This document shows positions 10,259-62,320 of a stretch of 64,000 nucleotides of DNA, piece after piece. Source of the stretch: Candidatus Nomurabacteria bacterium (GTDB lineage: Bacteria; Patescibacteriota; Minisyncoccia; Phycocordibacterales; UBA5272). The notes under the pieces were generated by a model. The model did not search any database. It saw only the letters and a list, made by a program, of their open reading frames with translations, and was not told where the DNA came from. Each line of letters opens with the position of its first letter. Position 1 is the first letter of the stretch. Where the stretch lies: the NCBI GenBank assembly GCA_028286645.1, contig JAQBRF010000004.1:91501-155500 (forward strand), in the 5' to 3' direction. A program made the position numbers and the translations under genes.

Positions 10259-10285
10259 CGGATTAAAGAGTCCGCTTTTTATTTT
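10258..10285 (+). terminator. intrinsic terminator
   Basis: gcgga-ttaaagag-tccgc followed by tttttattttt. Confidence 0.55.
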
Positions 10286-10304
10286 TGCCAAACTATCAAA
10301 ATAT

Positions 10305-10313
10305 GGTAGAATA
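10305..10313 (+). promoter_or_regulatory. TTGCCA-16-TAGAAT promoter with TG extension for greA
   Basis: ttgccaaactatcaaaatatggtagaat; the ATG at 10321 is 8 nt after the -10 box. Confidence 0.5.
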
Positions 10314-10320
10314 CTCAGAT

Positions 10321-26862: not shown

Positions 26863-26965
26863 AAGATAGCTGACCTGACACAGCTTTGCTAAGGCGAGTG
26901 CCGAAGCGAGATTTGAAACTTTAAGCCCCGTCAGAGGCTGAACCTTGAAATCAAGGAGCGACAAA

Positions 26966-27604: not shown

Positions 27605-27639
27605 AGCAACAACCACACAGACTGAAGCTTCTGTTCCAA

Positions 27640-27677
27640 ACCCCCAGCCGCTCTCGGTTGGGGTTTTTCTTTTTTTA
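27640..27677 (+). terminator. strong intrinsic terminator
   Basis: ccccagccg-ctct-cggttgggg followed by tttttctttttttaaa. Confidence 0.7.
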
Positions 27678-27720
27678 AAGTGGTCAATGATTGATAAAGG
27701 GAGTGAGTTATAATGACTAT

Positions 27721-29499: not shown

Positions 29500-30627
29500 A
29501 TGACAAACAAAGCATATAAAAACGAGACGATAAAGAGAAAATTCTACAGCTATTTAGCTAATTCTTCAAAAGGATTTTCTCCTACTACCATTGATTGTTA
29601 CGATGGTGCTATTTGTCTATGGGAAGATTTTTCTAAGGGAGAGGATTTCTTGTATTTTAGTAAAACAAAAGCAGAAGAATTCAAAGAATGGCTAAGAAAC
29701 AAGAAGAAGGTGCGTTCTTCAGAAAATGTAAGTCTGTCCTATTGTTACGACATGTTGAGATATTTGAGATGTTTCTTCAACTGGTTGTCTCAACAAAAGG
29801 GATACAGAAAAATAACTCAAAGTGATGTTGATTATCTCAATCTATCAAAAAAAGAAAGAAGAGTAGCAATGCAGCCAAAAAGTAAAGTTGTTCCTTCCTT
29901 AGAACAAGTAAAAAAGGTGATTGAAAATATTAAGGGGGAAAATGAAGTGGAGATGCGTGATAGGGCACTTCTGTCTCTTGCCCTGCTGACAGGAGCGCGA
30001 ATTACTGCTTTAACTTCGTTACCTCTAAGGAGTTTTGATAGGGAAAGACAGGTAATTGACCAGAGTCCAGAGCTGAATGTTAAAACTAAATTCTCAAAAA
30101 GAATTGTCTCACCGCTCATTTCCTTTTCATATAAGGAGCCATTAGGATACTTTGTTGAGTGGGTAAATTATTTAACTAGAAAGGGTTTTACAGATGAAGA
30201 CCCGATATTCCCAGCTACCAAAGTACAAAATGGTACAAAAGATGAGCTGGGTTATTTTAATACTGGTGAAGTAGAGCCTACCTTTTGGCAAAGTACATCT
30301 ACTGCAAGAAAGATATTTGAACAGAGGTTTACCCAAGCAGGTATTAGCTATCACAACCCTCACTCTTTTAGACATCTACTAGTTAAAGAAATATCAAAGC
30401 TCCATCTAACCGAGGAGCAGAGAAAAGCCTTCAGTCAAAGTTTAGGGCATGAGGATGTAGGTACAACATTTGGTTCGTACGGATATGGATATATTGATGA
30501 AGATAGACAAATAGAAATTGTTAATAGTATAGATTTTGAAGGGAAACATCATAGAAAAGAATATGTATTTACCGAGGAAGGGATAAATGAACTTATTAGG
30601 AAAGCCAAAGAGGGTGACGAAGTATGA
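29500..30627 (+). CDS. tyrosine-type site-specific recombinase / phage integrase family
   Basis: LALLTGARITAL (box I Arg), HNPHSFRHLLV (HxxR), LGHEDVGTTFGSYGY (catalytic Tyr region). Confidence 0.85.
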   Translation: MTNKAYKNETIKRKFYSYLANSSKGFSPTTIDCYDGAICLWEDFSKGEDFLYFSKTKAEEFKEWLRNKKKVRSSENVSLSYCYDMLRYLRCFFNWLSQQKGYRKITQSDVDYLNLSKKERRVAMQPKSKVVPSLEQVKKVIENIKGENEVEMRDRALLSLALLTGARITALTSLPLRSFDRERQVIDQSPELNVKTKFSKRIVSPLISFSYKEPLGYFVEWVNYLTRKGFTDEDPIFPATKVQNGTKDELGYFNTGEVEPTFWQSTSTARKIFEQRFTQAGISYHNPHSFRHLLVKEISKLHLTEEQRKAFSQSLGHEDVGTTFGSYGYGYIDEDRQIEIVNSIDFEGKHHRKEYVFTEEGINELIRKAKEGDEV

Positions 30628-31008: not shown

Positions 31009-32640
31009 ATGCCAGAACAATTACAAAATCAAACAAAACTAATTGCTGTTTATGGAAGGGTCTCTAGTTCAAATCAAGAAAACGAGGGAACTATTGAAAC
31101 ACAGCTCTCTGCAGTTAATGAGTTTTCTAAGAAGAATGGCTATACAATTGTGCAGAAATATACTGATGAAGGATGGAGTGGAGATAGTATCGCGAGACCT
31201 GCGTTAGACCAATTGCGAATGGATGCAAAGAAAAAGATTTGGTCTGCAGTTCTAATGTATGACCCAGATAGGTTGGCACGGCGCTATTCCTATCAAGAGT
31301 TGATTATGGATGAATTGAAGGAAGCTGGAATTGAAGTCATATTTGTAACAGTTTCCGCCCCGAAGAATAGTGAAGATAAAATTCTCTACGGAGTACGAGG
31401 TTTATTTGCTGAATACGAAAGGGCAAAGATTGCAGAACGCTTCCGACTAGGAAAAGTTCGTAAAGCAAACGAAGGCCATATTATTGCTAGTGAGGCACCT
31501 TATGGGTATACATTCATTACAAGAAATTCTGAAAGACAAGGTTACTACGAAATAAACGAAATTGAAGCAATTATCGTTAGGAAAATATTTACCTGGGTAG
31601 CTGACGAGGGTTTAACTTTACGAGCCATAGTTAAGCGTCTTCAGAATGAGGGAATACTACCTCGTAAAAGCAAAAGAGGTGTATGGAACACAAGTACATT
31701 AAGCACCCTATTACGAAATAAGACATACATAGGGGAAGCCCACTATGGTGCATCTTATGCTGTGGTTCCATTAAAACCGATTAAGAAGGAAGGCTATAAG
31801 AAAATAAAGAAAACGAGTAGACGAAATAAGCCTGAAAGTGAGTGGATTAAAATTTCTACTCCAAAAATTATTGAGGAAGAACTATTTATACGAGTAGGGC
31901 AAAGATTAAAGTCTAATTTTGAAAAGGCAGTAAGAAATACTAAAAATGAATATCTTCTCGCTGGTTCTATTTGGTGCTCGTGTGGAAATAGGCGGGCAGG
32001 GGAAGGGCCTCAACATGGTAAACACTTATATTACAGATGTACTAATCGCGGATATTGCTATCCTTTACCACGCACTTGTTTTGAAGGAGGAGTAAACGCA
32101 AGAATTGCTGATAAATTAGTTTGGCAAAAAGTCAGTATGCTTATGAGTTCTCCTGAACTTCTAACAAGACAAGCAGAACGATGGCTTAATAATAAGGTGA
32201 GCAGCAAACCTGCGGCCGCTACTGATATTTCAATATTAAGAAAAGAGATTGAAAAACTTAAAGACTCACAAGAACGATACATGAAAGCATATGGTGCGAA
32301 TGTCATCTCTTTAGAGCAGTTAACAGAATACACAGCACCTTTAAAAGAAAAAATGACTTCTCTGGATAGTCAAATAAAGCAAACTGAACTCGCAAATAAT
32401 CAGTTAAATGAAATACCACTACCCAAGAAAGAGGAAATAGAAGAGTTTGCACACAAGGCAAGCCATGAACTCAAAAATTTGAGCTTTAAGGCGAAACAGG
32501 AGATAATAAGAAGCATTATTGAAAAGGTCGTAGGTAATCAACAAGAACTAATAATATCAGGGTTTATACCCGTACAATATCTCAACCATGTCTCATTCTG
32601 CTCTCTCCATCGGAATCGTCGGATTGCCAAATGTAGGTAA
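31009..32640 (+). CDS. large serine recombinase (resolvase domain + recombinase domain + zinc ribbon + coiled coil)
   Basis: N-terminal LIAVYGRVSSSNQ catalytic Ser motif, a recombinase domain, a Cys-rich CSCGNRR...YYRCTNRGYCY ribbon, and a C-terminal coiled coil. The last 53 nt overlap the ychF start. Confidence 0.85.
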   Translation: MPEQLQNQTKLIAVYGRVSSSNQENEGTIETQLSAVNEFSKKNGYTIVQKYTDEGWSGDSIARPALDQLRMDAKKKIWSAVLMYDPDRLARRYSYQELIMDELKEAGIEVIFVTVSAPKNSEDKILYGVRGLFAEYERAKIAERFRLGKVRKANEGHIIASEAPYGYTFITRNSERQGYYEINEIEAIIVRKIFTWVADEGLTLRAIVKRLQNEGILPRKSKRGVWNTSTLSTLLRNKTYIGEAHYGASYAVVPLKPIKKEGYKKIKKTSRRNKPESEWIKISTPKIIEEELFIRVGQRLKSNFEKAVRNTKNEYLLAGSIWCSCGNRRAGEGPQHGKHLYYRCTNRGYCYPLPRTCFEGGVNARIADKLVWQKVSMLMSSPELLTRQAERWLNNKVSSKPAAATDISILRKEIEKLKDSQERYMKAYGANVISLEQLTEYTAPLKEKMTSLDSQIKQTELANNQLNEIPLPKKEEIEEFAHKASHELKNLSFKAKQEIIRSIIEKVVGNQQELIISGFIPVQYLNHVSFCSLHRNRRIAKCR

Positions 32641-33694
32641 ATCCACGCTCTTCAACGCCATTACGAAAAAATCCGTTCCTGCGGATAATTATCCTTTTTG
32701 TACTATCGACCCATCAGTTGGTATCGTTCCAGTGCCGGACGAGAGATTAGATGTGCTTGCAAAGCTATCTCTATCTAAAAAAATAATTCCTGGCGTAATT
32801 GAATTTGTGGATATAGCGGGCCTCGTTAAAGGTGCCGCCGAGGGCCAGGGACTTGGAAATCAATTTCTTTCACACATTCGCGAGACAGATGCCATCGCCG
32901 AAGTCGTGCGCATATACGAAAATAGCGATCTCATTCACGTCGAAGGAACGGTAGACCCTCTGCGAGATATTGAGATTATAAATATGGAGTTAATTCTCGC
33001 CGATATGTCTACTGTAGAAAAAAGAATTCAAACAATTGGGCGCGATGTAAAAAGGGGAGACAAAGACGCTTTGAAGCTGGAAGCAATACTTCAGAAGCTA
33101 AAAATTGCGTTTGATGCAGGTCAGTTAGCTAACAGTGTTCATATGGACGAAGAGGAGAAGGGGTTATTGAAAGAGCTTCATTTGATTACTATGAAGCCGA
33201 TTTTATATGTCTTAAATAAACAGTCCGGTGGTAAAAGTTTAGATGAGATGAATGATGAAAGATTTAAAAAGCTAATCTCATTCTTTAATGACAATAACCA
33301 AAAGTATGTAATAGTGGACGCGAAGATAGAAGACGAGCTCAAAGAGTTTGAAGGTGTCGAGAAGGAAGAAATGAGAAGAGAGCTCGGAGCTCATGATAAT
33401 GGAGTGGACGGTCTCATCAAAGCCGGATATGAATTACTCGGTCTTGAAACATTTTTGACTACAGGCCCGGAGGAGACAAGAGCATGGACAATTAAGAAAG
33501 GAAGTACAGCGCCAGTTGCTGGACAAGCCATTCACACAGACTTTAAAGATAAATTCATCCGCGCTGAAGTTGTAGCATACGAAGACTTAGTAAAAGTGGG
33601 AACGTTTGCTGAAGCGAAAAATAAAGGGGTACTAAGAACCGAGGGGAAAGAATACATCGTAAAGGATGGAGATGTGATTGAGTTTAAGATCTAA
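32588..33694 (+). CDS. ychF: ribosome-binding ATPase YchF (Obg-family GTPase)
   Basis: MSHSALSIGIVGLPNVGKSTLFNAIT P-loop, NQFLSHIRETDAI, and a C-terminal TGS domain. Confidence 0.9.
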   Translation: MSHSALSIGIVGLPNVGKSTLFNAITKKSVPADNYPFCTIDPSVGIVPVPDERLDVLAKLSLSKKIIPGVIEFVDIAGLVKGAAEGQGLGNQFLSHIRETDAIAEVVRIYENSDLIHVEGTVDPLRDIEIINMELILADMSTVEKRIQTIGRDVKRGDKDALKLEAILQKLKIAFDAGQLANSVHMDEEEKGLLKELHLITMKPILYVLNKQSGGKSLDEMNDERFKKLISFFNDNNQKYVIVDAKIEDELKEFEGVEKEEMRRELGAHDNGVDGLIKAGYELLGLETFLTTGPEETRAWTIKKGSTAPVAGQAIHTDFKDKFIRAEVVAYEDLVKVGTFAEAKNKGVLRTEGKEYIVKDGDVIEFKI

Positions 33695-33700
33695 ACAGAC

Positions 33701-34399
33701 CTATCTTACCTCTAGAAATACTTTAGGTTTGGTGGTGATAATGCGATCCTTTATTTCTGGAAAGATTTTACCTAATTGGATATTCTCAAAAAATATTGTT
33801 AATTCTCCATCATATGGATAGGCATTGGCATCATACAGAACATTTTTTATTTTTACTCTTTTTAACATTTCGGGCATTTCCTCAATGACATAGTGTGCCA
33901 TTCGGTTGATTTGTTGGTCATCGAAAGTTCGATTTTCATTCTTTGTGAATCCTTTGATTATTCCCTTTAATGTATCTTTAAACAATGGATTACTTTCGTA
34001 GTAATTATACAGAAACTTTACATCTTCTTTGTATCGGTCATCCATTAAATCCTTCCACGAGGCATAAATAATCTTTTCTTTTTCTTCTAAGCTAAAGCTT
34101 TTATCAATCTCATTTTTTACTTTTTCTATAATCACATTTCCCATTTTGTTAGAAAGTTCTAAGGCTTTAGCATGGGTAATGCCATTTCTAACCTCTAAGT
34201 TTATGGCATGAATATAATCAGCCACATATACCACAACGACGTCTTTGGTATGTTCTAAAGACCAACGGGTAAGTGCAACTATGTTTTCTACAGTAAACCA
34301 TTTATTTCCCAAACTTACTCCTATTCCTATTGTGTACTGCTTCTGTTGAAGTTCTTCCAAGTTGCCTCCTCTAATTTTACGAAGTTCCATGATACACAA
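33701..34399 (-). CDS. tRNA-dependent cyclodipeptide synthase (CDPS)
   Basis: IGIGVSLGNKWFTVENIVALTRWSLEHTKDVVVVYVADYIHAINL aligns with the AlbC-type motif IGISAGNSYFSQKNTVMLLQWA...VVYVDTHIDEML, including the catalytic Ser. Downstream, HYVIEEMPEM matches the CDPS Y[VI]xxExP motif with the catalytic Tyr and Glu. Size is about 230 aa. Confidence 0.75.
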   Translation of the reverse strand: MCIMELRKIRGGNLEELQQKQYTIGIGVSLGNKWFTVENIVALTRWSLEHTKDVVVVYVADYIHAINLEVRNGITHAKALELSNKMGNVIIEKVKNEIDKSFSLEEKEKIIYASWKDLMDDRYKEDVKFLYNYYESNPLFKDTLKGIIKGFTKNENRTFDDQQINRMAHYVIEEMPEMLKRVKIKNVLYDANAYPYDGELTIFFENIQLGKIFPEIKDRIITTKPKVFLEVR

Positions 34400-34427
34400 A
34401 TTTTAACATAAATTATATATAAATTAG

Positions 34428-34436
34428 ATGTTATAA
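34428..34436 (+). promoter_or_regulatory. extended -10 TGTTATAAT, 8 nt before the ATG of the aaRS-like gene, in the shared divergent promoter region
   Basis: The 45-bp CDPS/aaRS-like intergenic region is AT-rich and carries -10-like boxes on both strands. Confidence 0.4.
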
Positions 34437-34444
34437 TTCTATCC

Positions 34445-35188
34445 ATGAATCAGGAGTATTCTGCCGATTATAAGTTAAGTCTATATATAAACAGGATAAG
34501 AGCCTTTTTACTAAATCAGGGATTTTTCGAGCATCATTTATACTCTACAACTAATTACAAAATTGAAAACACAGATACTTTTCCTTTAAAGGATGGCATA
34601 TCTTTACGTTATAATCCTGAACCAGATATTTGGCAGATAGGTATTAAGTACGATAAATTTTTCTGGATTGGCAGTATGTTTAGAAATGAAAAAGAGATTA
34701 ATGAAACCAGAAGATATGAATTTACGGTAGTGGACATTTACCAACCAAATGGGAGACAAGAAGATGTTGTAAGTAAATTTATAGAAATATTGAAAATGTT
34801 GGAAGAAAGGTTAAAATTACCAGTTTTATCTTCATGTGAAGTTAAAACAATGCTTCATGAGGAATTCAATAAGGAGGACAGAATATTACCTTCAGGTAGG
34901 TGCTGGCTTCTAGTTACTAATTATCCAATTGTAGAATCATTTTATGACACAGGAAAAGATTCTGATTATACTTCTAAATTCGAAATTTACTTTGTTGATG
35001 AAGGCGTGCCTTTAGAAATAGCCGCTTGTGGAAATTTAGGGGAAAATATAAATAAAGTTAATTATATTTCGAGTGAAGATAGTTACATTAATCAAGAAAT
35101 AATAAATAAAAAGTTTATCGGTTTTGGTTTTGGGTTAGAAAGATTAATTTTTTTGTATGATCGGGAAGCTATCGACCATACAGAATGA
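34445..35188 (+). CDS. truncated class IIb aminoacyl-tRNA-synthetase-like catalytic core (LysRS/AsxRS paralog; EpmA- or AsnA-archaeal-type-like), no anticodon-binding domain
   Basis: Motif 2 MFRNEKEINETRRYEFTVVDIY (FRNE...EFT) and motif 3 GFGFGLERLIFLY (GxGxGxERL) are present; only 247 aa. Transcribed divergently from the CDPS. Confidence 0.7.
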   Translation: MNQEYSADYKLSLYINRIRAFLLNQGFFEHHLYSTTNYKIENTDTFPLKDGISLRYNPEPDIWQIGIKYDKFFWIGSMFRNEKEINETRRYEFTVVDIYQPNGRQEDVVSKFIEILKMLEERLKLPVLSSCEVKTMLHEEFNKEDRILPSGRCWLLVTNYPIVESFYDTGKDSDYTSKFEIYFVDEGVPLEIAACGNLGENINKVNYISSEDSYINQEIINKKFIGFGFGLERLIFLYDREAIDHTE

Positions 35189-35189
35189 T

Positions 35190-35320
35190 CATGGGTGATG
35201 CCTACTTGTACTAGCGGCGAGAGGCCAGTCCGCATCTCAACAAAAAGGTAGGGCAGGTACGCTCTGCACGTAATCCCATCAAAGCCTACGGACCACGAGC
35301 TGGCGCGAAATCGCCAGCTC
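35190..35320 (+). ncRNA. GC-rich structured element ending in an intrinsic terminator (candidate small RNA or 3' UTR element)
   Basis: A 130-nt stretch markedly GC-richer than its surroundings with several internal pairings (gcgg...ccgc, ccuac...guagg). It ends with the gagctggcg-cgaaat-cgccagctc hairpin plus tttcttttt. Confidence 0.25.
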
Positions 35321-35375
35321 TTTCTTTTTATATTATCGTTTGACTTACTAAAAATAAGATGTAGTGTTTGGGTAA
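35317..35375. repeat. 59-bp direct repeat, copy 1 (58/59 identical to 41559..41617)
   Basis: gctctttctttttatattatcgtttgacttactaaaaataagatgtagtgtttgggtaa. Weaker similarity continues for about 85 bp further, into a degenerate copy of the 5' end of the 41641 HTH gene. Confidence 0.8.
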
Positions 35376-35560
35376 TCATTTTGCCTCGAGGTGCGTATGA
35401 GTGAGCCTACATTTCGTAAGGTTGTTAATTTACAGGAGTTGGCGTAGCATTTGCAAACTCTGCGAAGGATGGCAAAAGGTCGGTCCATTCAATGACCGGG
35501 GCTTAATTGAATTCTATCTATGGAATCTTGTGTTGCGAGTCGGTTGAATTGAGTCTAATA

Positions 35561-35566
35561 TATAAC
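35561..35566 (+). promoter_or_regulatory. -10 box TATAAC, 6 nt before the ATG at 35573 (leaderless)
   Basis: tatataaccatacaATG. Confidence 0.35.
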
Positions 35567-35572
35567 CATACA

Positions 35573-38500
35573 ATGGAATTTATTAAAATATTTACCCAGT
35601 TAAATAAAAACAACGCACCTATTGCTGGAGGAAAAGGGGCCTCCTTGGGGGAAATGACTCAGGCGGGGATTCCGGTTCCGCCTGGATTTGTTATTTTATC
35701 TGAGACTTTTGATCATTTTTTATCGGAAACAGATTTAACGCAGGAAATTGAATTGATTTTAAAGAAAATAAATCATAATGAGATTCATGCTGTAGAGTCT
35801 GCCTCAGAAGAGATTCGGAATTTAATACTTCACAAAGATATTCCAGCAGATATTGAAGAAGGGATAATTAAATCGTTTAAAGAACTTAATGCTACCTACG
35901 TAGCAGTGAGATCATCTGCCACAGCAGAAGATGGAGCGGACCATGCTTGGGCAGGTCAACTAGAAACTTATTTAAATACTACAGAAGAAGACCTTCTTCG
36001 TAATGTAAAGCTTTGCTGGTCATCGCTTTTTACTCCGAGGGCCATTTTTTACAGATTTGAAAAGGAGCTAGATCAAACTAAAATTTCTGTAGCCGTAGTT
36101 ATACAAAAGATGGTGGAATCAGAGGTTTCAGGAATTGCCTTTTCAGTTCATCCTGTAACTGAAGATTATAACCAACTCATTATAGAAGCCGGATTTGGCT
36201 TAGGCGAAGCCATTGTGTCGGGGGCGGTTACTCCGGATTCATATATCGTGACAAAGAATTCACGGGAAATCGATATAAATGTATTTACGCAAAGCCGCGC
36301 ACTTTATAGATCTGTTAATAAAAATACGGAAGATGGAAATAACGAATGGAAGATAATCTCCGAGCCTCAGGCTTCATCTCAAGTACTTACAAATGATCAG
36401 ATTTTAGAACTTACTGAAATTATTATCACCATCGAGAATCATTACGGATTTCCATGTGATATCGAATGGGCGTACGAAAAAGGAAAGTTTTACATAGTCC
36501 AAAGCAGGCCCATCACAACTTTGAAAGGAAATATTGATTTATTAATAAAAACAAAAGAAGTTAATTTTAAAAAGGAGGATTATGTAATTACGTTTTGGGC
36601 ATCAGGCGTGAGTATTATATATACCGATATGGTTAAGGATATGTACCTACCGTATGATCCGCTGTTATGTATTTATGAAAATAAATATTATCAATATTTA
36701 TCGAAAACCGCTTATGACCAAGCAGGGAAAGATGGTATAGATTTATATGGCAATAAAGAAGCATATTATAAATATGAAGAAGATTTAAAAAAGGTAAGTC
36801 TTGATTTTAAGCGCTTTCGTGATAAGCGAATAAGTGAAACCTTTATCACTAAAGAAATACTTGAAGATTTTATAATGTATTCTAGCAAATTGCACCGAGG
36901 GTACAGTAAAATGGGATATGAGCATACCGACAAAGCTTTTTCTTTAGCAAATGAAAACCCTATAATTGCGGAGACCTTAAAAGAAGTTTCTATATTTAAG
37001 GACCAGATTAGAGCTGTAATAAATGAGATGTATTTTGAAAAAGGTTCATTGTTAGAGAATCTTTTAATACGATTAGAAAACCAGTTTCATGTTTCTTCTG
37101 GCGATTTATTAAATTATACTCAACAAGAATTACTCAATCTTTTTGATGGCAGCTTTGTCTCAAAGGAAGAGCTAGAAACTCGCGCCCTTGGTTTTGCTAT
37201 TCAGGGAATAGGCGGTGAAATTAAATTCTTTACAGGGAAAGTTGTAGAAAAAATAATTAACCAATTAGCTGAGCATATATTAGATAATAGAAATGAAATA
37301 AAAGGAATAATCGCGAATAAGGGTAAAGTATCTGGTCGAGTAAAAAAAATTAATGTTGATTATAGTGATTTTACGAAGCTAAATCAAGAAATCGAAAAGA
37401 TGAAAAATGGGGAAATTCTAGTGGCCGAAACCACTGCTCCTGAATTAATTATCGCTTGCCGAAAAGCTTCCGCTATAGTGACGGATCAAGGAGGCTTAAT
37501 GTCCCACGCCGCCATAATAAGCAGAGAATTTAATATTCCATGTATAGTTGGAACTAAATATGCTAGCCAGATTCTTCAGGATGGTGACGAAGTTGAAGTG
37601 GACGCAGATAAGGGAATAATAAAGATTTTAAAGAAAGCGGATCGAGAAAATTATCTCTTTTATTATGAATCACAGGGCTATTATTTTATTTTAGATGATC
37701 TTATTGTGGAATCATATATTGATTGGCCAATAGTTGAGATGCGAAGAGGAGACTGGAAACGGGTGTATATGACCGAAGAAGATATTCAAGAAAATTATCT
37801 TAAGGGACTTTCTTTTACAGAAAAAGAAATTAAGAAGAAAACCGATAATATACGACGACTGATTGAAAAAATAAGAAAAGTAAATTTTAATAATGCGCCA
37901 AAAGAAATAATTCTTAGTGGATTACAGATGATGGAAGATTTATTCGAATCATATAAATACCTTGATACCTCGTTTAGTGAGGGTTTATATGAGAAAAATA
38001 TCTCTGATCTTAGAGTGCTTATTATTGAACAATCTAAAAACCTTATACGAGATGATTTTGATTATATCTTTTTTAAGGACGGTGGAATATTGCGGCAATT
38101 ACTAACGGCTACAGCATTGCTCACTGGAACAAAAGCAGAAGATATAAGATGGTATCGCACTAAAGAGTTAAAAAGACTTATAAATGAACCTTATGAGATT
38201 TCTTCTTCTGAGATCCAAGCAAGATCTAAAGCTGCTGTCTTTGATAAAGACAGGAATGGAAATATAACTTTTTATTCGGGCCAAGAAGCAGAAGACTTTA
38301 TACAAAAGTTTGATAAAGAATTTGAAAAAGATAAGACTGAAGTGCTTAAGGGAACTGTTGCGTATGGAAATGGGGGTAAAATTAAAGGAATAGTTACTAT
38401 CATACATCGCGACTATTCGAATCTTTCAAAATTAGGTATTGATATGGAAAGGATGGCACCAGGTTCAATTTTAATAACAACCATTACAGACCCTGAATTC

Positions 38501-38689
38501 CTCCCTGCTATGAAGAAGGCCAGCGCAATAGTCACGGACATTGGAGGACTCTTGTCACACGCTGCTATTTCCGCAAGGGAACTCAAGGTTCCATGCATCG
38601 TAGGAACTCAGATTGCCACTAAGACTCTAAAAGATGGAGACGAAATTGAAATTGATATGAATACAGGAGCTATAAAATTCTTATCATGA
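35573..38689 (+). CDS. PEP-synthase/rifampin-phosphotransferase-like kinase: N-terminal PPDK_N ATP-grasp domain plus two PEP-utilizing phosphohistidine swivel domains, with no PEP/pyruvate TIM barrel
   Basis: N-terminus APIAGGKGASLGEM...PVPPGF, VAVRSSATAEDGADHAWAGQ, CDIEWAYEKGKFYIVQSRPIT. Swivel domains at about residues 620-700 (GGLMSHAAIISREFNIPCIVGT) and 960-1040 (GGLLSHAAISARELKVPCIVGT). The start is set at the MEFIKIF Met. Confidence 0.8.
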   Translation: MEFIKIFTQLNKNNAPIAGGKGASLGEMTQAGIPVPPGFVILSETFDHFLSETDLTQEIELILKKINHNEIHAVESASEEIRNLILHKDIPADIEEGIIKSFKELNATYVAVRSSATAEDGADHAWAGQLETYLNTTEEDLLRNVKLCWSSLFTPRAIFYRFEKELDQTKISVAVVIQKMVESEVSGIAFSVHPVTEDYNQLIIEAGFGLGEAIVSGAVTPDSYIVTKNSREIDINVFTQSRALYRSVNKNTEDGNNEWKIISEPQASSQVLTNDQILELTEIIITIENHYGFPCDIEWAYEKGKFYIVQSRPITTLKGNIDLLIKTKEVNFKKEDYVITFWASGVSIIYTDMVKDMYLPYDPLLCIYENKYYQYLSKTAYDQAGKDGIDLYGNKEAYYKYEEDLKKVSLDFKRFRDKRISETFITKEILEDFIMYSSKLHRGYSKMGYEHTDKAFSLANENPIIAETLKEVSIFKDQIRAVINEMYFEKGSLLENLLIRLENQFHVSSGDLLNYTQQELLNLFDGSFVSKEELETRALGFAIQGIGGEIKFFTGKVVEKIINQLAEHILDNRNEIKGIIANKGKVSGRVKKINVDYSDFTKLNQEIEKMKNGEILVAETTAPELIIACRKASAIVTDQGGLMSHAAIISREFNIPCIVGTKYASQILQDGDEVEVDADKGIIKILKKADRENYLFYYESQGYYFILDDLIVESYIDWPIVEMRRGDWKRVYMTEEDIQENYLKGLSFTEKEIKKKTDNIRRLIEKIRKVNFNNAPKEIILSGLQMMEDLFESYKYLDTSFSEGLYEKNISDLRVLIIEQSKNLIRDDFDYIFFKDGGILRQLLTATALLTGTKAEDIRWYRTKELKRLINEPYEISSSEIQARSKAAVFDKDRNGNITFYSGQEAEDFIQKFDKEFEKDKTEVLKGTVAYGNGGKIKGIVTIIHRDYSNLSKLGIDMERMAPGSILITTITDPEFLPAMKKASAIVTDIGGLLSHAAISARELKVPCIVGTQIATKTLKDGDEIEIDMNTGAIKFLS

Positions 38690-39798
38690 ATATATTAGAG
38701 TATATTAAATCTAATACCTATGAGCGTCTCGTCCGGTATCCACGGATTCCTGTTTTATATGCCGAAGCAATGAATGAGGGTTTACAAAATAATCCATATT
38801 TTGATCTTGCTGATTCTATTCCTAACCCCTCAATTATTGTTTATATTAATGATATTTATGAAGCGTGGATAAAAATATCAGGACGTGTTATTGTAAGCGA
38901 CCTTGAATCCATAAAAGAAATAGAAACAGCAAGCTTAAAGTGTATAGAAAGAAATCAATCTATTTTGGAGGATATCTTAAATTTAAAAGATGAATTATCT
39001 GACAAAGAGGTGATTATTGAAATGATTAAAAAAACAAATTCTGCGTCCTCAGATATATATAAGCATTTTATATTCTTTATAGATGAAAGTTTCAGAGTTT
39101 CTGATCAGGAAATAATCGAAAGCTTACAAAGTACTCGTCTGAAGTTAGACCTCCTAGTTACTGAATATTTATTTCCTGCCTTTGAAAGGTTAGTTAATGA
39201 ACTTGTTGAGGTTTATGATTTTCCTAAAGAAACAGTAGAAAAAATGACAACCTCTGAAATAATTGAATCTTTAAAAGATTATGATTATCTTATAAAACTT
39301 GAAAATATCAGTGCCCGACCTATATGTTTTTTGCTGGCAGACAATACCATTAAGGTCCTTTTCAGTAAAGAAGCAAAAGATGTGTGCTCTTATTTATATA
39401 AGCAAGACACAGATAAAAAAATATTTGATCAGGCTTTAGAAAGTAAAACCTTAAAAGGAAATATTGGTAACCAAGGAAAAGTTCGAGGGAAAGTTAGAAA
39501 GCTTTTAGCTAAGGATTTCTTCAATAAAGATAAACTTGCTAATCTATCTCAAGGAGATAAGTTTGTTTTGGTTACTTCTATGACGGCTCCTGAGCTTGTG
39601 CCTTATTTTAAAAATGCAATTGCGTTTGTAACTGACGAAGGTGGGATCACATGCCATGCGGCGATTATCGCTCGCGAATTAAATATTCCTTGTATTATAG
39701 GAACCAAGGTAGCTACAGAAGTTATAAATGACGGTGACGACGTGGAAGTGGATGCATATAAAGGGTTAGTAAAAATAATTAATAATTTAAATAGATAA
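38686..39798 (+). CDS. PEP-utilizing-enzyme mobile (phosphohistidine swivel) domain protein with an uncharacterised 250-aa N-terminal domain
   Basis: C-terminal LKGNIGNQGKVRGKV...GGITCHAAIIARELNIPCIIGT. Overlaps the upstream gene by 4 nt (ATGA). Confidence 0.7.
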   Translation: MNILEYIKSNTYERLVRYPRIPVLYAEAMNEGLQNNPYFDLADSIPNPSIIVYINDIYEAWIKISGRVIVSDLESIKEIETASLKCIERNQSILEDILNLKDELSDKEVIIEMIKKTNSASSDIYKHFIFFIDESFRVSDQEIIESLQSTRLKLDLLVTEYLFPAFERLVNELVEVYDFPKETVEKMTTSEIIESLKDYDYLIKLENISARPICFLLADNTIKVLFSKEAKDVCSYLYKQDTDKKIFDQALESKTLKGNIGNQGKVRGKVRKLLAKDFFNKDKLANLSQGDKFVLVTSMTAPELVPYFKNAIAFVTDEGGITCHAAIIARELNIPCIIGTKVATEVINDGDDVEVDAYKGLVKIINNLNR

Positions 39799-39800
39799 AC

Positions 39801-40832
39801 ATGTCAAATTTGCAAGAGTATAGATACATAATGAATCGCTCTTTATCACTTATTGCCTGTGAATTATGGGACAAAGGAGAAAGGCTAATGATGCCAGAAA
39901 AGCTAGCTCAAAAGATTTTCTTTGACCCTCTTTTTATTTACAGAATGAATAAGGCTGTAACAATCTATTATAATTTTACTGACCCGAAACAAAGTCTTAA
40001 TTCAGTCGCACAATACCTTAATGAAAATGAAAGTATTTTTGATGAATTAAAGGACCAATTTGATGTAGATTGCTATGAAATAAGACAAATGATAGATCGA
40101 AAAAAGCCTGAAGAATTTAATAATCTCTTCGAAAAAGTAATTTGTATTTGGCCATTAATTGCTATTAGCAATGTTTTAGGAGATGACAGGGATTATCTTC
40201 CAATTGTTAAAGAGAGTATGCGGGAAAAGTATTTGCTTATTAGGAAAGAAAGTGACGGTCTGTGGCAAAAAGGAGCCAAAATACTTCAAATACAAGCTGA
40301 ACATCTTATACCCCAGAAGTATTTACCATGGTCTGAGTTCCTTCTATCTAAGGAGGTTATTTCTAAAGAGTTGCCATCCATTACAGAACTAAAAAAAAGA
40401 AAAGATGGATATCTTTATCATAAGGGATCACTTTATGTAAATGAAACGACAGAGATCTATTTAAAAGATAACCAATATTTCCTTACCGAGAATGAAAAGC
40501 CTTCAGCGGAAGTTAAGATAATAAAAGGAATATCTGCCATGAAGGGAAAAGTAATAGGAAAAGTCAAAGTTATTTTTGAAAAGAAGGATATAAAAAAAAT
40601 TGAAAAGGGAGATATACTAGTCACTCCTATGACGTCTCCTAATTTAATAGAGGCCATGAATAGAGCTGCAGGATTTGTAACAGATGAAGGAGGTGTCACG
40701 TGTCATGCGGCGATTATCGCTCGCGAAATGGGAAAGCCTTGCATAATTGCGACAAAGATAGCAACCAAAGTGCTTAATGATGGAGATCTGGTTGAAGTGG
40801 ATGCAGATAGCGGAAGAGTTATAAAATTATAG
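39801..40832 (+). CDS. PEP-utilizing-enzyme mobile (phosphohistidine swivel) domain protein with an uncharacterised N-terminal domain
   Basis: C-terminal IKGISAMKGKVIGKV...GGVTCHAAIIAREMGKPCIIAT. Starts 2 nt after the upstream stop. Confidence 0.7.
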   Translation: MSNLQEYRYIMNRSLSLIACELWDKGERLMMPEKLAQKIFFDPLFIYRMNKAVTIYYNFTDPKQSLNSVAQYLNENESIFDELKDQFDVDCYEIRQMIDRKKPEEFNNLFEKVICIWPLIAISNVLGDDRDYLPIVKESMREKYLLIRKESDGLWQKGAKILQIQAEHLIPQKYLPWSEFLLSKEVISKELPSITELKKRKDGYLYHKGSLYVNETTEIYLKDNQYFLTENEKPSAEVKIIKGISAMKGKVIGKVKVIFEKKDIKKIEKGDILVTPMTSPNLIEAMNRAAGFVTDEGGVTCHAAIIAREMGKPCIIATKIATKVLNDGDLVEVDADSGRVIKL

Positions 40833-40865
40833 AATTAATATTTAAATATAAAGGAAAAGGGCTTA

Positions 40866-40894
40866 TTGACTTTCTGTACATAATATGGTATACT
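40866..40894 (+). promoter_or_regulatory. near-consensus promoter TTGACT-17-TATACT with a TG extension
   Basis: ttgactttctgtacataatatggtatact. A 38-nt leader with an AGGGAG SD precedes the ATG at 40933. Confidence 0.5.
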
Positions 40895-40932
40895 ATGTAT
40901 TGATCTAGTTACCCATAACAGGGAGTTGAAAC

Positions 40933-41514
40933 ATGGACCAAAATCGTGAAATCTGGCTTGCTCGCCACTTTCCTGCGGAAAACACAGGCGAGGTCGGCTG
41001 GCAGCAAAACGCCAAGCTTCGCCCGGAAGCAGAGAACATGGCCGAACGCGTGAAGGTGGCATATCTGCAATCGGTGTCGTTTGCTGCATTCGGCTGCTCC
41101 ATGATGGACCGGGCTCACGCGAGTCTCGGGCTCCTGTTTTTGGAGATAGGGAATGGCAACAAGGTGCCGGTGACTTGTCAGAGCCTCGGCCCGCTTAATC
41201 CCGACGAGTGGGGGTTTTTCGGACAACTGAAGACCGGAACCATCGAGGAAATACACGAGCATGCACCAGAAGGTCTGCTCGACCGCGAAGGTGTACGCGT
41301 TCTGGAGAGAGGCGTTATCATGTTCGCCGACGCCTGGCTTCAGCCCGGAGAGAAAGCTTTCCTCGTTTCCCATACGCCCTTTATAGAAGGTGCACTCGCC
41401 GCTCTCAAGGGTTACTGGGATCTCGAGTTCACGATGGGAAAAGGCGACATCCTCGTCTTCACCATTGGCGAACGCGGCGTCGAAAGCACTCGGCATCTGA
41501 TAGTTCCGAAGTAG
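40933..41514 (+). CDS. SixA-like histidine phosphatase family protein, GC-rich class
   Basis: IWLARHFPAE (RHG-like RHF) and FLVSHTPFIEGALAAL (VSHxP) resemble phosphohistidine phosphatase SixA. GC-rich with an SD. Confidence 0.45.
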   Translation: MDQNREIWLARHFPAENTGEVGWQQNAKLRPEAENMAERVKVAYLQSVSFAAFGCSMMDRAHASLGLLFLEIGNGNKVPVTCQSLGPLNPDEWGFFGQLKTGTIEEIHEHAPEGLLDREGVRVLERGVIMFADAWLQPGEKAFLVSHTPFIEGALAALKGYWDLEFTMGKGDILVFTIGERGVESTRHLIVPK

Positions 41515-41558
41515 CGTTCGTGCTCCTGTGGTATTTTAGCCGGCGGCTCTATGCGCCG

Positions 41559-41617
41559 GCTCTTTCTTTTTATATTATAGTTTGACTTACTAAAAATAAG
41601 ATGTAGTGTTTGGGTAA
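41559..41617. repeat. 59-bp direct repeat, copy 2
   Basis: gctctttctttttatattatagtttgacttactaaaaataagatgtagtgtttgggtaa. Preceded by a terminator hairpin (gccggcg...gcgccggc) whose sequence differs from the hairpin before copy 1 but whose structure is analogous. Confidence 0.8.
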
Positions 41618-41640
41618 ACTCATTCACCTGCGGGGCAGCT

Positions 41641-42153
41641 ATGAAAAGGACGGTAGAATCTGGGAAATTGCATTTGCCGGAGCTCGCGAAATATCTGCAA
41701 ATGTGCCGGCTCATGATGAAGCCTCGCCTTAACCAGCGAGAATTCTCACAAAAGATCGGCACTAGTGATCATGTGGTGATTGATCTGGAATGTGGCGTAA
41801 CCATGGACCCGAAGCGAGCCATTCTGGAAAAATGGGCCAAAGTGACTGGAGGCTCATACACCAGGATGGTTCAGATTCTGACCTTCGAGAAGTTCGGCAT
41901 TGCGGTGGTTCCTTCAACGTGCGGGAGTGTCTGGTCTTCGCAAATCCTTCAGATGGGGGGAGAGTTGGTAATGGTGACACTGCAGAAATGCGAACCGTTG
42001 CCTTTCCTCTTCTCGGCATCAAAGCAGGAAAGCGATAAGAAGTTCCAGTCTCGGAAACGAGCAACAAGGGATGAGATCGAAAGGTTCAAGGAAACTCCGC
42101 GTCCAACCATGTCTGTAGGGCGCGTTGTTTCCGGACGATCCACACGTGGCTAA
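41641..42153 (+). CDS. XRE-family helix-turn-helix protein, GC-rich class
   Basis: LNQREFSQKIGTSDHVVIDLECG Cro/C1-type HTH near the N-terminus. Its 5' region has a degenerate duplicate at 35376-35460. Confidence 0.5.
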   Translation: MKRTVESGKLHLPELAKYLQMCRLMMKPRLNQREFSQKIGTSDHVVIDLECGVTMDPKRAILEKWAKVTGGSYTRMVQILTFEKFGIAVVPSTCGSVWSSQILQMGGELVMVTLQKCEPLPFLFSASKQESDKKFQSRKRATRDEIERFKETPRPTMSVGRVVSGRSTRG

Positions 42154-42179
42154 TAAGCTTTCAAGAAAATGTATTCAAA

Positions 42180-42205
42180 GGCCTCCGAGGAGGGCCTTTT
42201 CTTTT
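42180..42205 (+). terminator. intrinsic terminator
   Basis: ggcctcc-gag-gagggcc followed by ttttcttttcc. Confidence 0.55.
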
Positions 42206-42207
42206 CC

Positions 42208-42237
42208 CTAGCAACTAATAACCATTAACTATAAACT
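42208..42237 (+). promoter_or_regulatory. promoter with shared element CTAGCAACTAATAACC (TAGCAA-17-TAAACT)
   Basis: 15/16 identical to the element at 45294-45309. The -10 box is 6 nt before the ATG at 42244. Confidence 0.45.
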
Positions 42238-42243
42238 ATCCCC

Positions 42244-42693
42244 ATGTATATTTTATTTGCATTCTTAGGCGCCATCATGGCTTCGCTCGGAACCATATTT
42301 GCGAAGATCGGATTAAAAGGAGTTGATGCAAATTTACTAACAGCAATCCGAGGAATTACTATGGCAGTTATTGTTTCTGTCGCAGCTCTGTCTTTTGGAA
42401 AGCTTTCAGTTGTATCGCTTGCGGCACTTACTCCTAAGCAATGGACCTTCGTGCTTCTCTCAGGTTTAGCCGGAGGATTGTCATGGCTTTTCTTTTATCA
42501 CGCATTAGCATTCGGTCCGATAGTTCCTGTGACAGTAATAGACAAATTTTCTATTGTTCTTGTGGCAATTTTGGCTACATTAATCCTTTCGGAAAAGATT
42601 ACTCTTCAAGCGGGCGTTGGGCTTATTATGATTACAATTGGAACAGTCTTAGTATCAATACCAATAGAAAAGATCATAAGTGTCTTTAAATAG
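42244..42693 (+). CDS. EamA/DMT-like small membrane transporter (4 TM)
   Basis: 149 aa with four hydrophobic helices and an EamA-like pattern (GLAGGLSWLFFYHALAFGP). Confidence 0.5.
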   Translation: MYILFAFLGAIMASLGTIFAKIGLKGVDANLLTAIRGITMAVIVSVAALSFGKLSVVSLAALTPKQWTFVLLSGLAGGLSWLFFYHALAFGPIVPVTVIDKFSIVLVAILATLILSEKITLQAGVGLIMITIGTVLVSIPIEKIISVFK

Positions 42694-42717
42694 ATGATTT
42701 TGTTATAATTTGATTCT

Positions 42718-44655
42718 ATGACGACAAACGAAATCCGTACGAAATTCTTGGAATATATGAAAGACAAGGGACATGCTATTGTCCCTTCAGCTTCTTTAGT
42801 TCCAGAAAACGATCCCACCACTTTATTTACTGGTTCGGGGATGCAGCCTATGCTTCGCTATTTCTTAGGTGAACAACACCCGTTGGGAAAGAGAGTTGCG
42901 GACTCGCAAAAGTGTTTCCGTTCACAAGATATAGAAGAAGTGGGAGATAATCGTCATACAACATTTTTCGAAATGTTGGGCAATTGGTCTTTCGGAGATT
43001 ATTTTAAAGAAGAACAGATCAAGTGGATGTGGGATTTTTTAATTGATGAATTAAATCTAAATCCTAAAAATTTCTATACTACATGTTTTAAAGGAAATAA
43101 TGCTCTGGGAATCCCAAGAGATACCTTCTCCGCCGACTTATGGCAGAAGCTGTTTGCGGAAAAAGGCCTAGATGTAACCATAGGAGAAAATCCTGAAGTT
43201 GATGGGATGAAAGAAGGACAGCATATTTTTTATTATGATGAAAGTAAAAATTGGTGGAGCCGTTCAGGAAAGCCGGGCGGTATGCCAGAGGGAGAGCCAG
43301 GAGGACCTGATACTGAAATGTTTTATGACTTTGATCCAGACCTTTCAAAGCAGATTCATGCTAAATCAAAATGGAGCAGCGAAGTTTGTCATGTGAATTG
43401 TGACTGCGGAAGATTTATGGAAATTGGGAACAATGTGTTTATGCAGTATAAAAAGACCGCTAATGGTTTCGCGGAGCTTCCACAAATGAATGTAGATCAC
43501 GGTTCAGGACTTGAACGATATGCCGCAGCGTTACGAAATGATCCAGATATGTTGGCAATTGATGTATTTGATGAACCTAGAAAAACAATTGAAGAGTTAT
43601 CGGGAAAAAATTATGGGGCAAACGAAGATGAAACTTATGCTTTTAGAGTTATCTTAGATCATCTTCGCGCGGCGACTTTCTTGATAGGAGATGGGATTCT
43701 TCCAGGAAACAAAGATCAGATGTATTATGTTAGACGCTTGATTCGTCGTGCCGTACGATTCGGAAATAAACTGGGTATAAATGAATCATTTACTAAGCGA
43801 GTCGCTGACTCATACATAGAAACATATAAAAAAGAATATAAAGTCTTAGAAGAAAAGAAAGATTTAATTCTTTCTGAAATGGAGAAAGAAGAAAGTAAAT
43901 TCCGATTAACTCTGGAAAAAGGAATAAAGGAGTTTGAAAAGATTGCAACGAAAGATATTTCCGGAATTGATGCATTTAACCTTCTTCAGTCTTACGGATT
44001 TCCAATCGAATTAACAGAAGAGCTAGCCGCCGAGCGCGGAATAAAAGTAGATCGCTCAAGTTTTGACGAAGCAAAGAAAAAGCATGCAGAAGAATCCCGT
44101 ACAGCTTCAGCTGGAAAGTTTAAAGGAGGATTGGGGGGCGATGGAGAAATAGAAACAAAGTATCATACGGCTACACATTTACTTCACGAAGCCTTGAGAC
44201 AGGTACTAGGCGAACACGTTCTCCAAAAAGGATCTAACATTACATCAGAACGACTACGCTTTGATTTCTCATTTGATAGGAAAATGACAGATGACGAAAA
44301 GAAAAAAGTGGAAGATATAATCAATGATGTTATCAAACAAGATCTGCCAGTACATAGAGAAGAAGTTACATATGAGGAAGCGAGAGAGCGAGGAGCTATA
44401 GGAGTGTTTGATGAAAAGTACGGAGAGAAAGTAAGTATTTATACAGTAGGAGAGCCCGGAAAGCGTGGTACTGCTAAATTATTCTCAATGGAGTTTTGTG
44501 GTGGGCCCCACGTGAATTCCACAGGCGAACTCGCCGTAGGTGGAATTCATCCACCTGACAGCAGTCAAGGGGATAAACCTTATAGACATTTTGTAATACA
44601 AAAAGAAGAGGCGGTATCTGCTGGGGTTAGAAGAATAAAAGCAGTATTAGAATAA
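42718..44655 (+). CDS. alaS: alanyl-tRNA synthetase, short form (catalytic + tRNA-recognition + editing core, no C-Ala domain)
   Basis: FTGSGMQPM, HTTFFEMLGNWSFGDYFK, the editing-domain HTATHLLH, and FCGGPHV motifs. 645 aa, against about 875 for canonical bacterial AlaRS. Confidence 0.88.
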   Translation: MTTNEIRTKFLEYMKDKGHAIVPSASLVPENDPTTLFTGSGMQPMLRYFLGEQHPLGKRVADSQKCFRSQDIEEVGDNRHTTFFEMLGNWSFGDYFKEEQIKWMWDFLIDELNLNPKNFYTTCFKGNNALGIPRDTFSADLWQKLFAEKGLDVTIGENPEVDGMKEGQHIFYYDESKNWWSRSGKPGGMPEGEPGGPDTEMFYDFDPDLSKQIHAKSKWSSEVCHVNCDCGRFMEIGNNVFMQYKKTANGFAELPQMNVDHGSGLERYAAALRNDPDMLAIDVFDEPRKTIEELSGKNYGANEDETYAFRVILDHLRAATFLIGDGILPGNKDQMYYVRRLIRRAVRFGNKLGINESFTKRVADSYIETYKKEYKVLEEKKDLILSEMEKEESKFRLTLEKGIKEFEKIATKDISGIDAFNLLQSYGFPIELTEELAAERGIKVDRSSFDEAKKKHAEESRTASAGKFKGGLGGDGEIETKYHTATHLLHEALRQVLGEHVLQKGSNITSERLRFDFSFDRKMTDDEKKKVEDIINDVIKQDLPVHREEVTYEEARERGAIGVFDEKYGEKVSIYTVGEPGKRGTAKLFSMEFCGGPHVNSTGELAVGGIHPPDSSQGDKPYRHFVIQKEEAVSAGVRRIKAVLE

Positions 44656-62102: not shown

Positions 62103-62281
62103 CTAGATAATAGACGTTAGATTTTAGATGTCAGATTAATAAAGAAGGATAGAATATAAAACGTAGGAAAATAAAAGTTTCTAGAGCACGCGAAGTTTAG
62201 TTTGGGAGTACATATATTTAAAATTAATTAGGGACTTGGTCCTGAGCTTCGGAGTGTACTTAAAAATTTAGAAATGAAGAA

Positions 62282-62320
62282 TTCCCAGAGGCGCTATAAA
62301 ACAGCGCCTCTGGGAATTTT
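62282..62320 (+). terminator. strong hairpin terminator (13-bp stem)
   Basis: ttcccagaggcgc-tataaaaca-gcgcctctgggaa followed by tttt. Lies immediately next to the stop of the 62319..62747 minus gene. Confidence 0.6.

Follow-up and report, generated by a model that had tools for sequence, protein, structure and literature searches.

Islands that are flanked by attL and attR sites and carry no integrase of their own, i.e., cis-mobilizable elements (CIMEs), are known from the ICESt1/ICESt3 family of Streptococcus thermophilus. Direct repeats of a shared segment also flank the insert after a Campbell-type insertion duplication, which needs no internal recombinase gene, leaves one truncated and one intact copy of the gene concerned and can be resolved again by recombination between the repeats. 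In transformable bacteria the insertion of foreign DNA can be anchored by homology on one side, and such homology-facilitated illegitimate recombination, known from the natural transformation of Acinetobacter and Streptococcus, combines one homologous anchor with an illegitimate join that truncates a resident gene (PMC3410848, PMC8116780). For Patescibacteria, natural competence and frequent gene transfer within the phylum have been documented (PMC10633639, PMC12455944), and genomic islands and hotspots between core genes have been described (PMC12455944). Here, a locus is considered that can be compared with each of these systems. It lies in a stretch of 64,000 nucleotides from Candidatus Nomurabacteria bacterium (assembly GCA_028286645.1, contig JAQBRF010000004.1, positions 91,501 to 155,500 of the forward strand), termed the window throughout the text. 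Two near-identical copies of a short terminator-promoter tract, R1 and R2, enclose three genes for phosphoenolpyruvate (PEP)-utilizer proteins and one gene of the histidine phosphatase superfamily, and R2 stands directly upstream of a gene for an XRE-type helix-turn-helix (HTH) regulator. It is proposed, tentatively and with a rough probability of 0.45, that the repeat is a recombination scar, which arose when the cluster was inserted at the promoter of the XRE gene and which also wired the operon to that promoter.

A terminator-promoter module at both ends of the cluster

A direct repeat of 59 bp was reported in the initial annotation of this DNA, and the self-alignment bears it out, since positions 35317-35375 and 41559-41617 agree at 58 of 59 bases in the same orientation. 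The repeat core is slightly longer (35312-35375 versus 41554-41617), with 62 of 64 bases matching and a start-to-start spacing of 6242 nt. The two mismatches are A/G at 35316/41558 and C/A at 35337/41579; past a 2-nt indel at 35376/41618 a further five of five bases (TCATT) match, which extends the repeat to 35380 and 41624, respectively. A scan of the window that allowed up to three mismatches found two copies, against none expected from shuffled sequences. The best other ungapped match in the window reached 32/59, and a whole-window self-BLAST returned no additional copy. Exact matches to a 22-mer of the repeat were absent from genome, metagenome and viral collections, and the lone public match to a gapped version of the promoter pattern was set aside as a chance hit inside an unrelated coding region. 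Presence of the repeat at many unrelated loci, which had been named as the observation that would speak for a general module, was thus not found, with two copies in 64 kb and no true public copy.

The repeat was checked independently in the Logan k=31 unitigs of run SRR13312974. One unitig (L087) ends at window position 35367, inside R1, another (L086) is identical to window 37610-41609, and a third (L088) begins at 41588, inside R2. Three of the four repeat flanks are in this way reproduced base for base, the order of the flanks being given by the metagenome-assembled genome (MAG) only. The breaks fall exactly where a 31-mer loses its uniqueness inside the repeat. Since independent unitigs stop at the repeat, it represents a true branching node in the reads and no artefact of this particular assembly.

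Each copy is preceded by a GC-rich hairpin, as was noticed earlier, but the description of the two hairpins as different in sequence is inexact, because only the loops differ (CGAAAT in hairpin 1, GCTCTATG in hairpin 2). The stems, GAGCTGGCG/CGCCAGCTC and AGCCGGCG/CGCCGGCT, are equal save for one compensated pair (T-A to C-G). In both copies the GC-rich hairpin stands directly before TTTCTTTTT, the arrangement of a rho-independent terminator, and between 33 and 43 kb of the window no other terminator-like site ranks above these two hairpins (Table 1). Further downstream, both copies carry a putative sigma-70-type promoter composed of TTGACT (5/6 consensus bases), a 16-nt spacer and TAGTGT (3/6), which scores below the threshold of a consensus scan. 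The prediction of a sigma-70-like promoter as the core of the repeat is supported by the same architecture, TTGACT-17-TAGTTT, at the equivalent position upstream of an XRE homologue in a related genome (L007). The near-identity of the two copies stops about where the transcript would be expected to start (approximately 35374 and 41616), and the leaders that follow R1 and R2 show no more stable folding than shuffled sequence does.

Along the module, the identity between the two ends of the cluster changes over very short distances. In an anchored comparison, the 100 nt before the hairpins agree at 25 of 100 positions, which is the random level. The 5′ stem arm matches at 7 of 8 positions and the loop is unalignable, then the 3′ stem arm, T-tract and promoter form the tract with 62/64 matches, after which the values fall to 6/16 in the 5′ untranslated region (UTR) and to 45/96 nt in the first 32 codons, where identity is evenly spread across codon positions. 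The next 80 nt are again at the random level (29%). Identity of 97% beside 47% within a few bases does not fit a simple old duplication followed by differential decay, so that the segmental duplication offered as an alternative in the initial annotation cannot be upheld in that simple form. The upstream region of L007 shares only the hexamers and some spacer bases with the repeat, from which it follows that promoter constraint alone cannot give 97%. The central tract appears to have a much more recent common ancestry than the flanks.

A weaker similarity beyond R1, followed at first over about 85 bp and taken for a decayed duplicate of the promoter and first ~20 codons of the XRE gene, is real and longer than that, its ATG at 35397 standing in register with the ATG of the XRE gene at 41641. 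Over 32 codons, and reading through the stops at 35445 and 35493, 12 of 32 amino acids are identical; the translation runs MSEPTFRKVVNLQELA, stop, HLQTLRRMAKGRSIQ, stop, and the XRE N-terminus reads MKRTVESGKLHLPELAKYLQMCRLMMKPRLNQR. The match is colinear and its protein score is 41, compared with 25.4 ± 4.0 for genomic controls, of which 8 of 1472 reach 41. A colinear XRE-like reading that is interrupted by stops indicates that R1 precedes a dead 33-codon XRE-type stub, designated psiXRE. The GC content of psiXRE is 0.44-0.49, compared with a non-ORF (open reading frame) baseline of 0.37, and the substitutions between stub and XRE gene are symmetric (21 GC-to-AT, 16 AT-to-GC). Because substitutions are symmetric and GC is retained, the stub looks like a fragment of an allele that had diverged beforehand, and not like the product of decay in situ. 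As read from the alignment, stub and XRE gene are closer to each other than to the homologues in L007 or in a second relative, L049.

The intact XRE gene itself has few relatives. A word-indexed search of 5.8 billion proteins returned only the XRE protein itself, an exact look-up of contigs with this protein gave no record, and L049 and L007 have homologues with 29-34% identity at the corresponding place in the chromosome. No Pfam model matches the window protein, which is hit by the PADLOC model HTH_VI at E = 1e-3; the L007 homologue (34% identity) exceeds the Pfam HTH_3 cut-off (25.6 vs 23 bits), which supports the XRE label for the window gene.

Several other features around the repeat copies were considered. 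Two minus-strand ORFs, 35092-35379 (95 aa) and 41412-41762 (116 aa), cross both copies in the same frame (TQTLHLIFSKSN[D/Y]NIKRKS); they were judged spurious, their flanks being unrelated and the ORFs overlapping real genes. GC-rich patches were examined as candidate structured RNAs; neither gathering nor permissive thresholds yielded an Rfam match, and no tRNA or tmRNA was identified. For the GC-rich stub that stands directly 5′ of hairpin 1, an origin by decay from the 3′ end of the phosphatase gene, proposed by eye from the residues GER, was rejected after nucleotide and protein local alignments against controls, as well as a search of its six-frame translation with the family hidden Markov model (HMM), turned out negative. 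Positions 35210-35287 translate to TSGERPVRISTKR, stop, GRYALHVIPSKP, which resembles a motif in the DnaK of the window (54154-54231); with 12/26 aa, a tblastx E-value of 0.011 and no Pfam HSP70 match, origin from DnaK was rejected as well and the resemblance is probably due to chance.

The ychF-alaS interval and the enclosed genes

Relatives of the locus were compared as AlaRS-anchored loci from 80 genomes (L006-L085). About 45 of these relatives (Paceibacterota/Nomurabacteria) keep one gene order: the block found at 13.6-18.8 kb in the window, ychF, a variable part, optionally EamA, then alaS, o127 and o474. The gap between ychF and alaS ranges from 0.2 kb (L009) to approximately 5.7 kb, and in L015 EamA follows 21 nt after ychF. 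The cargo alternates: 13 genomes carry a module that encodes an ECF sigma factor together with a membrane protein of 266 aa and a further protein of 150 aa, 11 carry EamA, and L007, L049 and the window itself, three in all, carry an XRE gene. The ychF-alaS interval (window 33695-42717) is a hypervariable hotspot. With its mosaic of variable cargo between ychF and alaS in dozens of genomes it is comparable to the islands and core-gene hotspots described for Patescibacteria (PMC12455944), from which it differs in that a duplicated regulatory module marks one insertion inside the hotspot. Donors of the cargo within the phylum are likely, homologues of the phosphatase being found in Candidate Phyla Radiation (CPR) lineages with 49-59% GC.

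The genes PEP1 to PEP3, the phosphatase gene, a cyclodipeptide synthase (CDPS) gene and a gene resembling aminoacyl-tRNA synthetases (aaRS) occur in none of the approximately 45 syntenic relatives, which is in line with the earlier proposal that the enclosed segment was acquired and means that an insertion event is needed in any case. The comparison with an empty site, suggested together with that proposal, gave a partial answer. Two empty-like sites exist, L049 (ychF-XRE-EamA-alaS) and L007 (ychF-XRE-alaS), but with AlaRS 66-75% and XRE 29-34% identical they are too diverged for the repeat to be read as a single copy in either. Since their XRE homologues stand between ychF and EamA or alaS, R2 followed by the XRE gene looks like the resident arrangement.

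No genes other than PEP1-3 and the phosphatase gene lie between the repeats (the window genes are JWN37_516 to 520 in the source genome), and the statement that no integrase is found inside therefore stands; the nearest integrases are located 2.7-5.8 kb outside, beyond ychF. PEP1 has thousands of relatives in Patescibacteria, the best with about 45% identity. In all three of the contexts examined (among L001-L005) a convergent low-molecular-weight phosphatase (LMWPc) gene follows the PEP1 relative, and such relatives often adjoin a serine recombinase. The swivel regions of PEP1 (C-terminal, 37475-37642), PEP2 (39625-39793) and PEP3 (40674-40848) share 64-74% DNA identity, a sign of tandem duplication inside the operon, and one of the Logan unitigs has a break at 37610 as well.

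The phosphatase retrieved only itself in a word-indexed homologue search, and an exhaustive HMMER search retrieved 21 distant full-length homologues. The family shares the motifs RH, SPLxRAxQT and VSHxPLxE, its alignment shows the residues R11/H12, S56...R60 and, as second catalytic His, H147, and the family profile matches the PDB profiles of CobC (6e4b, at 2e-10) and PhoE (1ebb), the single protein scoring 17.6 bits with Pfam His_Phos_1 against a cut-off of 21.7. Motifs and profiles thus assign the protein, first called SixA-like, to branch 1 of the histidine phosphatase superfamily (PGAM/CobC/PhoE/SixA) as a whole and not to SixA specifically. In four of five other CPR contexts the phosphatase homologue lies beside PEP-utilizers genes. 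It directly adjoins such a gene on the same strand in L089/L090 (Kaiserbacteria) and L091, it is located within an array of 355-362-aa PEP2/PEP3-like genes in L094, and in L095 PEP-utilizers genes flank it on both sides. The exception is L092 (Sungbacteria; 8001-10562), where the homologue faces alaS in convergent orientation and no PEP gene is close by; the phosphatase gene of the window lies 1.2 kb upstream of alaS, a resemblance to L092 that may be coincidence. An XRE gene was found beside the phosphatase homologue in none of the five contexts. The recurrent neighbourhood of phosphatase and PEP-utilizers genes argues that the bracketed genes form a functional unit, and what the repeats enclose would thus be precisely one functional module together with the stub. 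As a candidate for a known defence system the cluster was rejected, PADLOC giving no match to it.

The base composition of the cluster is uneven. High GC is confined to the bodies of the phosphatase and XRE ORFs, the GC content at third codon positions (GC3) of neighbouring genes being 0.24-0.31, and the promoters and terminators of both genes are AT-rich like the host. Genomes that carry phosphatase homologues have 49-59% GC, and the homologues themselves have 59-65% GC even in genomes of 49-54% GC, which explains why the phosphatase gene stands at 0.56 when the rest of the cluster has 0.32-0.35.

The window holds two insertions around ychF, i.e., island 1 (approximately 18.8-32.6 kb) and island 2 (33.7-42.2 kb), the latter with the repeat. 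Directly upstream of ychF, island 1 carries an HTH_17 gene, a tyrosine integrase gene, an Xis-like HTH_17 gene and a large serine recombinase (LSR) gene. Homologues of the LSR (63-68% identity) abut ychF likewise in L027 and L043, in both without the PEP cluster, which points to a possible target of serine recombinases immediately 5′ of ychF. A search for att-like boundary repeats of island 1 gave none that was convincing. On the other side of ychF, the CDPS and aaRS-like genes (33701-35188) have a GC content of 0.30-0.33. The CDPS gene is divergent from the aaRS-like gene, its stop lying 6 nt from the ychF stop, and the aaRS-like protein consists of the catalytic core only, with weak LysRS/EpmA/PylS-like matches.

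Elsewhere in the window, three segments of raised GC (511-796, 4378-5212 and 26900-27700; 0.47-0.50) gave no Rfam match at permissive thresholds; the first two are without long ORFs and the third overlaps an ORF of 219 aa that matches no Pfam model. A near-perfect 39-nt palindrome with flanking A/T runs at 62280-62318 (TTCCCAGAGGCGCT...AGCGCCTCTGGGAA) is probably a bidirectional terminator.

Table 1. Coordinates of the repeat copies, the genes around them and associated signals, as positions of the window.
Feature	Position	Strand	Remarks
Tyrosine integrase	29500-30627		Island 1
Large serine recombinase (LSR)	31009-32640		Island 1; ORF overlaps ychF start
ychF, conserved left anchor	32588-33694	+	Pfam YchF-GTPase_C, MMR_HSR1; 71-85% identical homologues upstream of alaS in ~40 relatives
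Cyclodipeptide synthase (CDPS)	33701-34399	-	Pfam CDPS; TIGR04539, 69.5 bits; AT-rich
Class II aaRS-like gene, truncated	34445-35188	+	tRNA-synt_2; 247 aa; AT-rich
GC-rich stub	35189-35296	+	GC 0.55; directly 5′ of hairpin 1
Terminator hairpin 1	35297-35320	+	9-bp stem, 7 GC, then T-tract; -17.7 kcal/mol, z -4.0
Repeat copy 1 (R1)	35312-35380	+	3′ stem arm, T-tract/AT-rich upstream region, predicted promoter, discriminator
Predicted -35 of R1, TTGACT	35340-35345	+	16-nt spacer to predicted -10 TAGTGT at 35362-35367
psiXRE, dead XRE 5′ fragment	35397-35495	+	Shine-Dalgarno GAGGTG, ATG, 16 codons, TAG 35445, 15 alignable codons, TGA 35493
PEP1	35573-38689	+	PPDK_N and two PEP-utilizers swivel domains; 1038 aa from NCBI start
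PEP2	38686-39798	+	N-terminal region and PEP-utilizers swivel domain
PEP3	39801-40832	+	PEP2 paralogue, PEP-utilizers swivel domain; full-length alignment to 355-aa gene in L094
Promoter-like site, strong	40866-40894	+	TTGACT-17-TATACT (with TG), 5′ of phosphatase gene
Histidine-phosphatase-superfamily gene	40933-41514	+	GC 0.56, GC3 0.64
Terminator hairpin 2	41538-41561	+	8-bp stem, 7 GC, then T-tract; -17.0 kcal/mol
Repeat copy 2 (R2)	41554-41624	+	Same module; predicted -35 at 41582-41587, -10 at 41604-41609
XRE-type HTH regulator gene, intact	41641-42153	+	170 aa; GC 0.51, GC3 0.58; near-orphan
Terminator after XRE gene	42177-42199	+	
EamA half-transporter	42244-42693	+	
alaS, conserved right anchor	42718-44655	+	

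Origin of the duplicated module

According to the proposed scar, one module, a terminator followed by a sigma-70-type promoter, would belong to an XRE-family gene in the hypervariable ychF-alaS interval. A cargo of 6.2 kb, i.e., three PEP-utilizer genes and a histidine-phosphatase gene, would have recombined into this module, so that the module now flanks it on both sides. The left copy, followed by the dead 33-codon stub of a diverged XRE allele, would then read into the PEP operon, the right copy would drive the intact XRE gene, and the near-identity tract of approximately 60-80 nt would be the shared sequence in which the exchange occurred, or else a sequence that was homogenised later. Two routes could lead to this arrangement. 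A circular intermediate with the terminator, the promoter and the XRE 5′ end on it may have integrated by a Campbell-type single crossover, or linear DNA may have entered the cell and truncated a resident XRE allele by homology-facilitated illegitimate recombination. Both are plausible in Patescibacteria, given their competence and the frequent transfer within the phylum, and the data would fit either repeat copy as the resident or the incoming one. We infer the recombination route, as well as the transcription of the PEP operon from R1 under control shared with the XRE gene and a RecA-mediated loop-out via the 59-64-bp repeats.

The likeness to a Campbell-type insertion duplication is found in the hairpin-promoter-XRE 5′ unit that is present at both ends, the left XRE sequence ending at about codon 33 and the right one being intact, and in the fact that no internal recombinase gene is called for. 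The locus differs from such a duplication, whose circular intermediate and donor would here be hypothetical, in its very short shared tract of approximately 60-80 nt with an adjoining part that is 47% identical. Homology-facilitated illegitimate recombination fits a hotspot between core genes in a lineage with documented competence (PMC10633639), but taken alone it leaves promoters of 97% identity beside XRE alleles of 47% unaccounted for. A literature search on comparable promoter-duplication scars found nothing specific.

Several points weigh against the scar. The crossover is not seen directly, there being no pre-insertion sequence and no relative with >90% average nucleotide identity (ANI), and both routes assume that donor and recipient shared a near-identical tract of approximately 60 nt beside strongly diverged XRE alleles. 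The promoter is predicted from sequence, with a weak -10 hexamer (3/6) that failed the consensus scan. The 5′ arms of the hairpins are conserved on the far side of a loop that cannot be aligned; this has the look of functional selection and would fit an older duplication that was kept homogeneous equally well. The scar does not account for the GC-rich stub at 35189-35296, and the search for copies of the repeat covered 64 kb, the genome having at least 514 kb.

The duplication may instead have happened in situ, when approximately 200 nt with terminator, promoter and the first ~33 XRE codons were copied to a place upstream of a pre-existing PEP operon, the functional part of the copy being kept identical by gene conversion or selection and its coding stub decaying. 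The homologous unit does begin sharply at the hairpin and fade inside the XRE coding region, the conserved blocks coincide with stem arms and promoter and the variable ones with loop and UTR (one stem pair being compensated), and stub and XRE gene are nearer to each other than to L007 or L049. Such promoter capture is nevertheless judged unlikely. Identity of 97% against 47% would require nearly all 64 positions to be constrained, or else a very short conversion tract, and in comparison with L007 the promoter is not conserved to this degree; the stub shows no drift to the AT-rich baseline and its substitutions are symmetric; a mechanism for a dispersed 200-nt copy 6 kb away is not evident, and the cargo, absent from relatives, would require an insertion anyway. 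Somewhat less probable again are attL and attR sites of a non-autonomous, CIME-like element, in which the 59-64-nt tract would be the att core and a recombinase, e.g., the tyrosine integrase at 29500-30627, would act in trans. To this extent the initial annotation, which read the repeat as attL/attR, named a real likeness: near-perfect direct repeats (62/64, 6242 nt apart) surround an acquired and functionally coherent cargo that is absent from relatives, a displaced degenerate copy of the target gene 5′ end is present at one junction, a tyrosine integrase, an HTH_17 Xis-like gene and an LSR lie 3-6 kb away, and PEP1 relatives often adjoin serine recombinases. Against the attL/attR reading, however, there is no recombinase gene between the repeats, and no third copy (best 32/59 in the window) connects them with the integrases at 29.5-32.6 kb or indicates accretion with an integrase-bearing island. 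These integrases sit in a separate insertion across ychF, where L027 and L043 have the LSR without the PEP cluster, and no boundary repeats tie those of island 1 to the repeat. Unlike attL/attR islands and CIMEs, the locus has no adjacent cognate integrase and no tRNA or gene 3′ end as a target; its identity block consists exactly of terminator arms and promoter, not of a gene end, and a core-type dyad is not evident in it by eye. Serine recombinases are not known to leave long direct repeats. Site-specific attL/attR recombination is on these grounds less likely than a recombination scar with promoter capture.

Three further explanations are given far less credence. A general terminator-promoter module of the genome, two copies of which happen to be neighbours here, would make sense of a unit able to serve many operons, and the copy search covered 64 kb of at least 514 kb; it is improbable in view of exactly two copies and no degenerate ones in 64 kb, of the missing exact 22-mer match and the single chance match to the gapped pattern in public collections, and of the homologue of the R2 gene 5′ end in the flank of R1, which is not expected of a generic module. 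Quite as improbable is a dedicated landing pad in the promoter of a fast-evolving XRE regulator, recombinase-independent or served in trans, by which whole operons are captured and shed; were it true, it would amount to integron-like capture without an integron integrase in the ychF-alaS hotspot, through which naturally competent CPR bacteria place operons immediately under the control of the regulator. An assembly artefact, i.e., a collapsed or chimeric join at a short repeat, is the least credible of all: misjoins are possible in MAG contigs where repeats exceed the k-mer, but three of the four flanks are confirmed by independent unitigs and each copy keeps its private mismatches.

Meaning for Patescibacteria

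The repeat is most likely a new example of an ordinary type of feature, namely a duplication scar that edges acquired DNA. Read as a scar, it would mark the precise entry point of a functional gene cluster in a CPR genome, within a hotspot that can be compared across dozens of uncultivated relatives. Two predictions follow from this reading, i.e., that the XRE regulator's promoter has become connected to the PEP-utilizer/phosphatase operon, and that the cassette can be lost again via recombination between the repeats. The pairing of PEP arrays with a phosphatase, the ychF-alaS hotspot and the CDPS gene beside a truncated aaRS-like gene may be of more interest than the repeat itself. The arrays of PEP-utilizer genes together with the phosphatase in Patescibacteria may constitute an uncharacterised phosphohistidine-transfer system.

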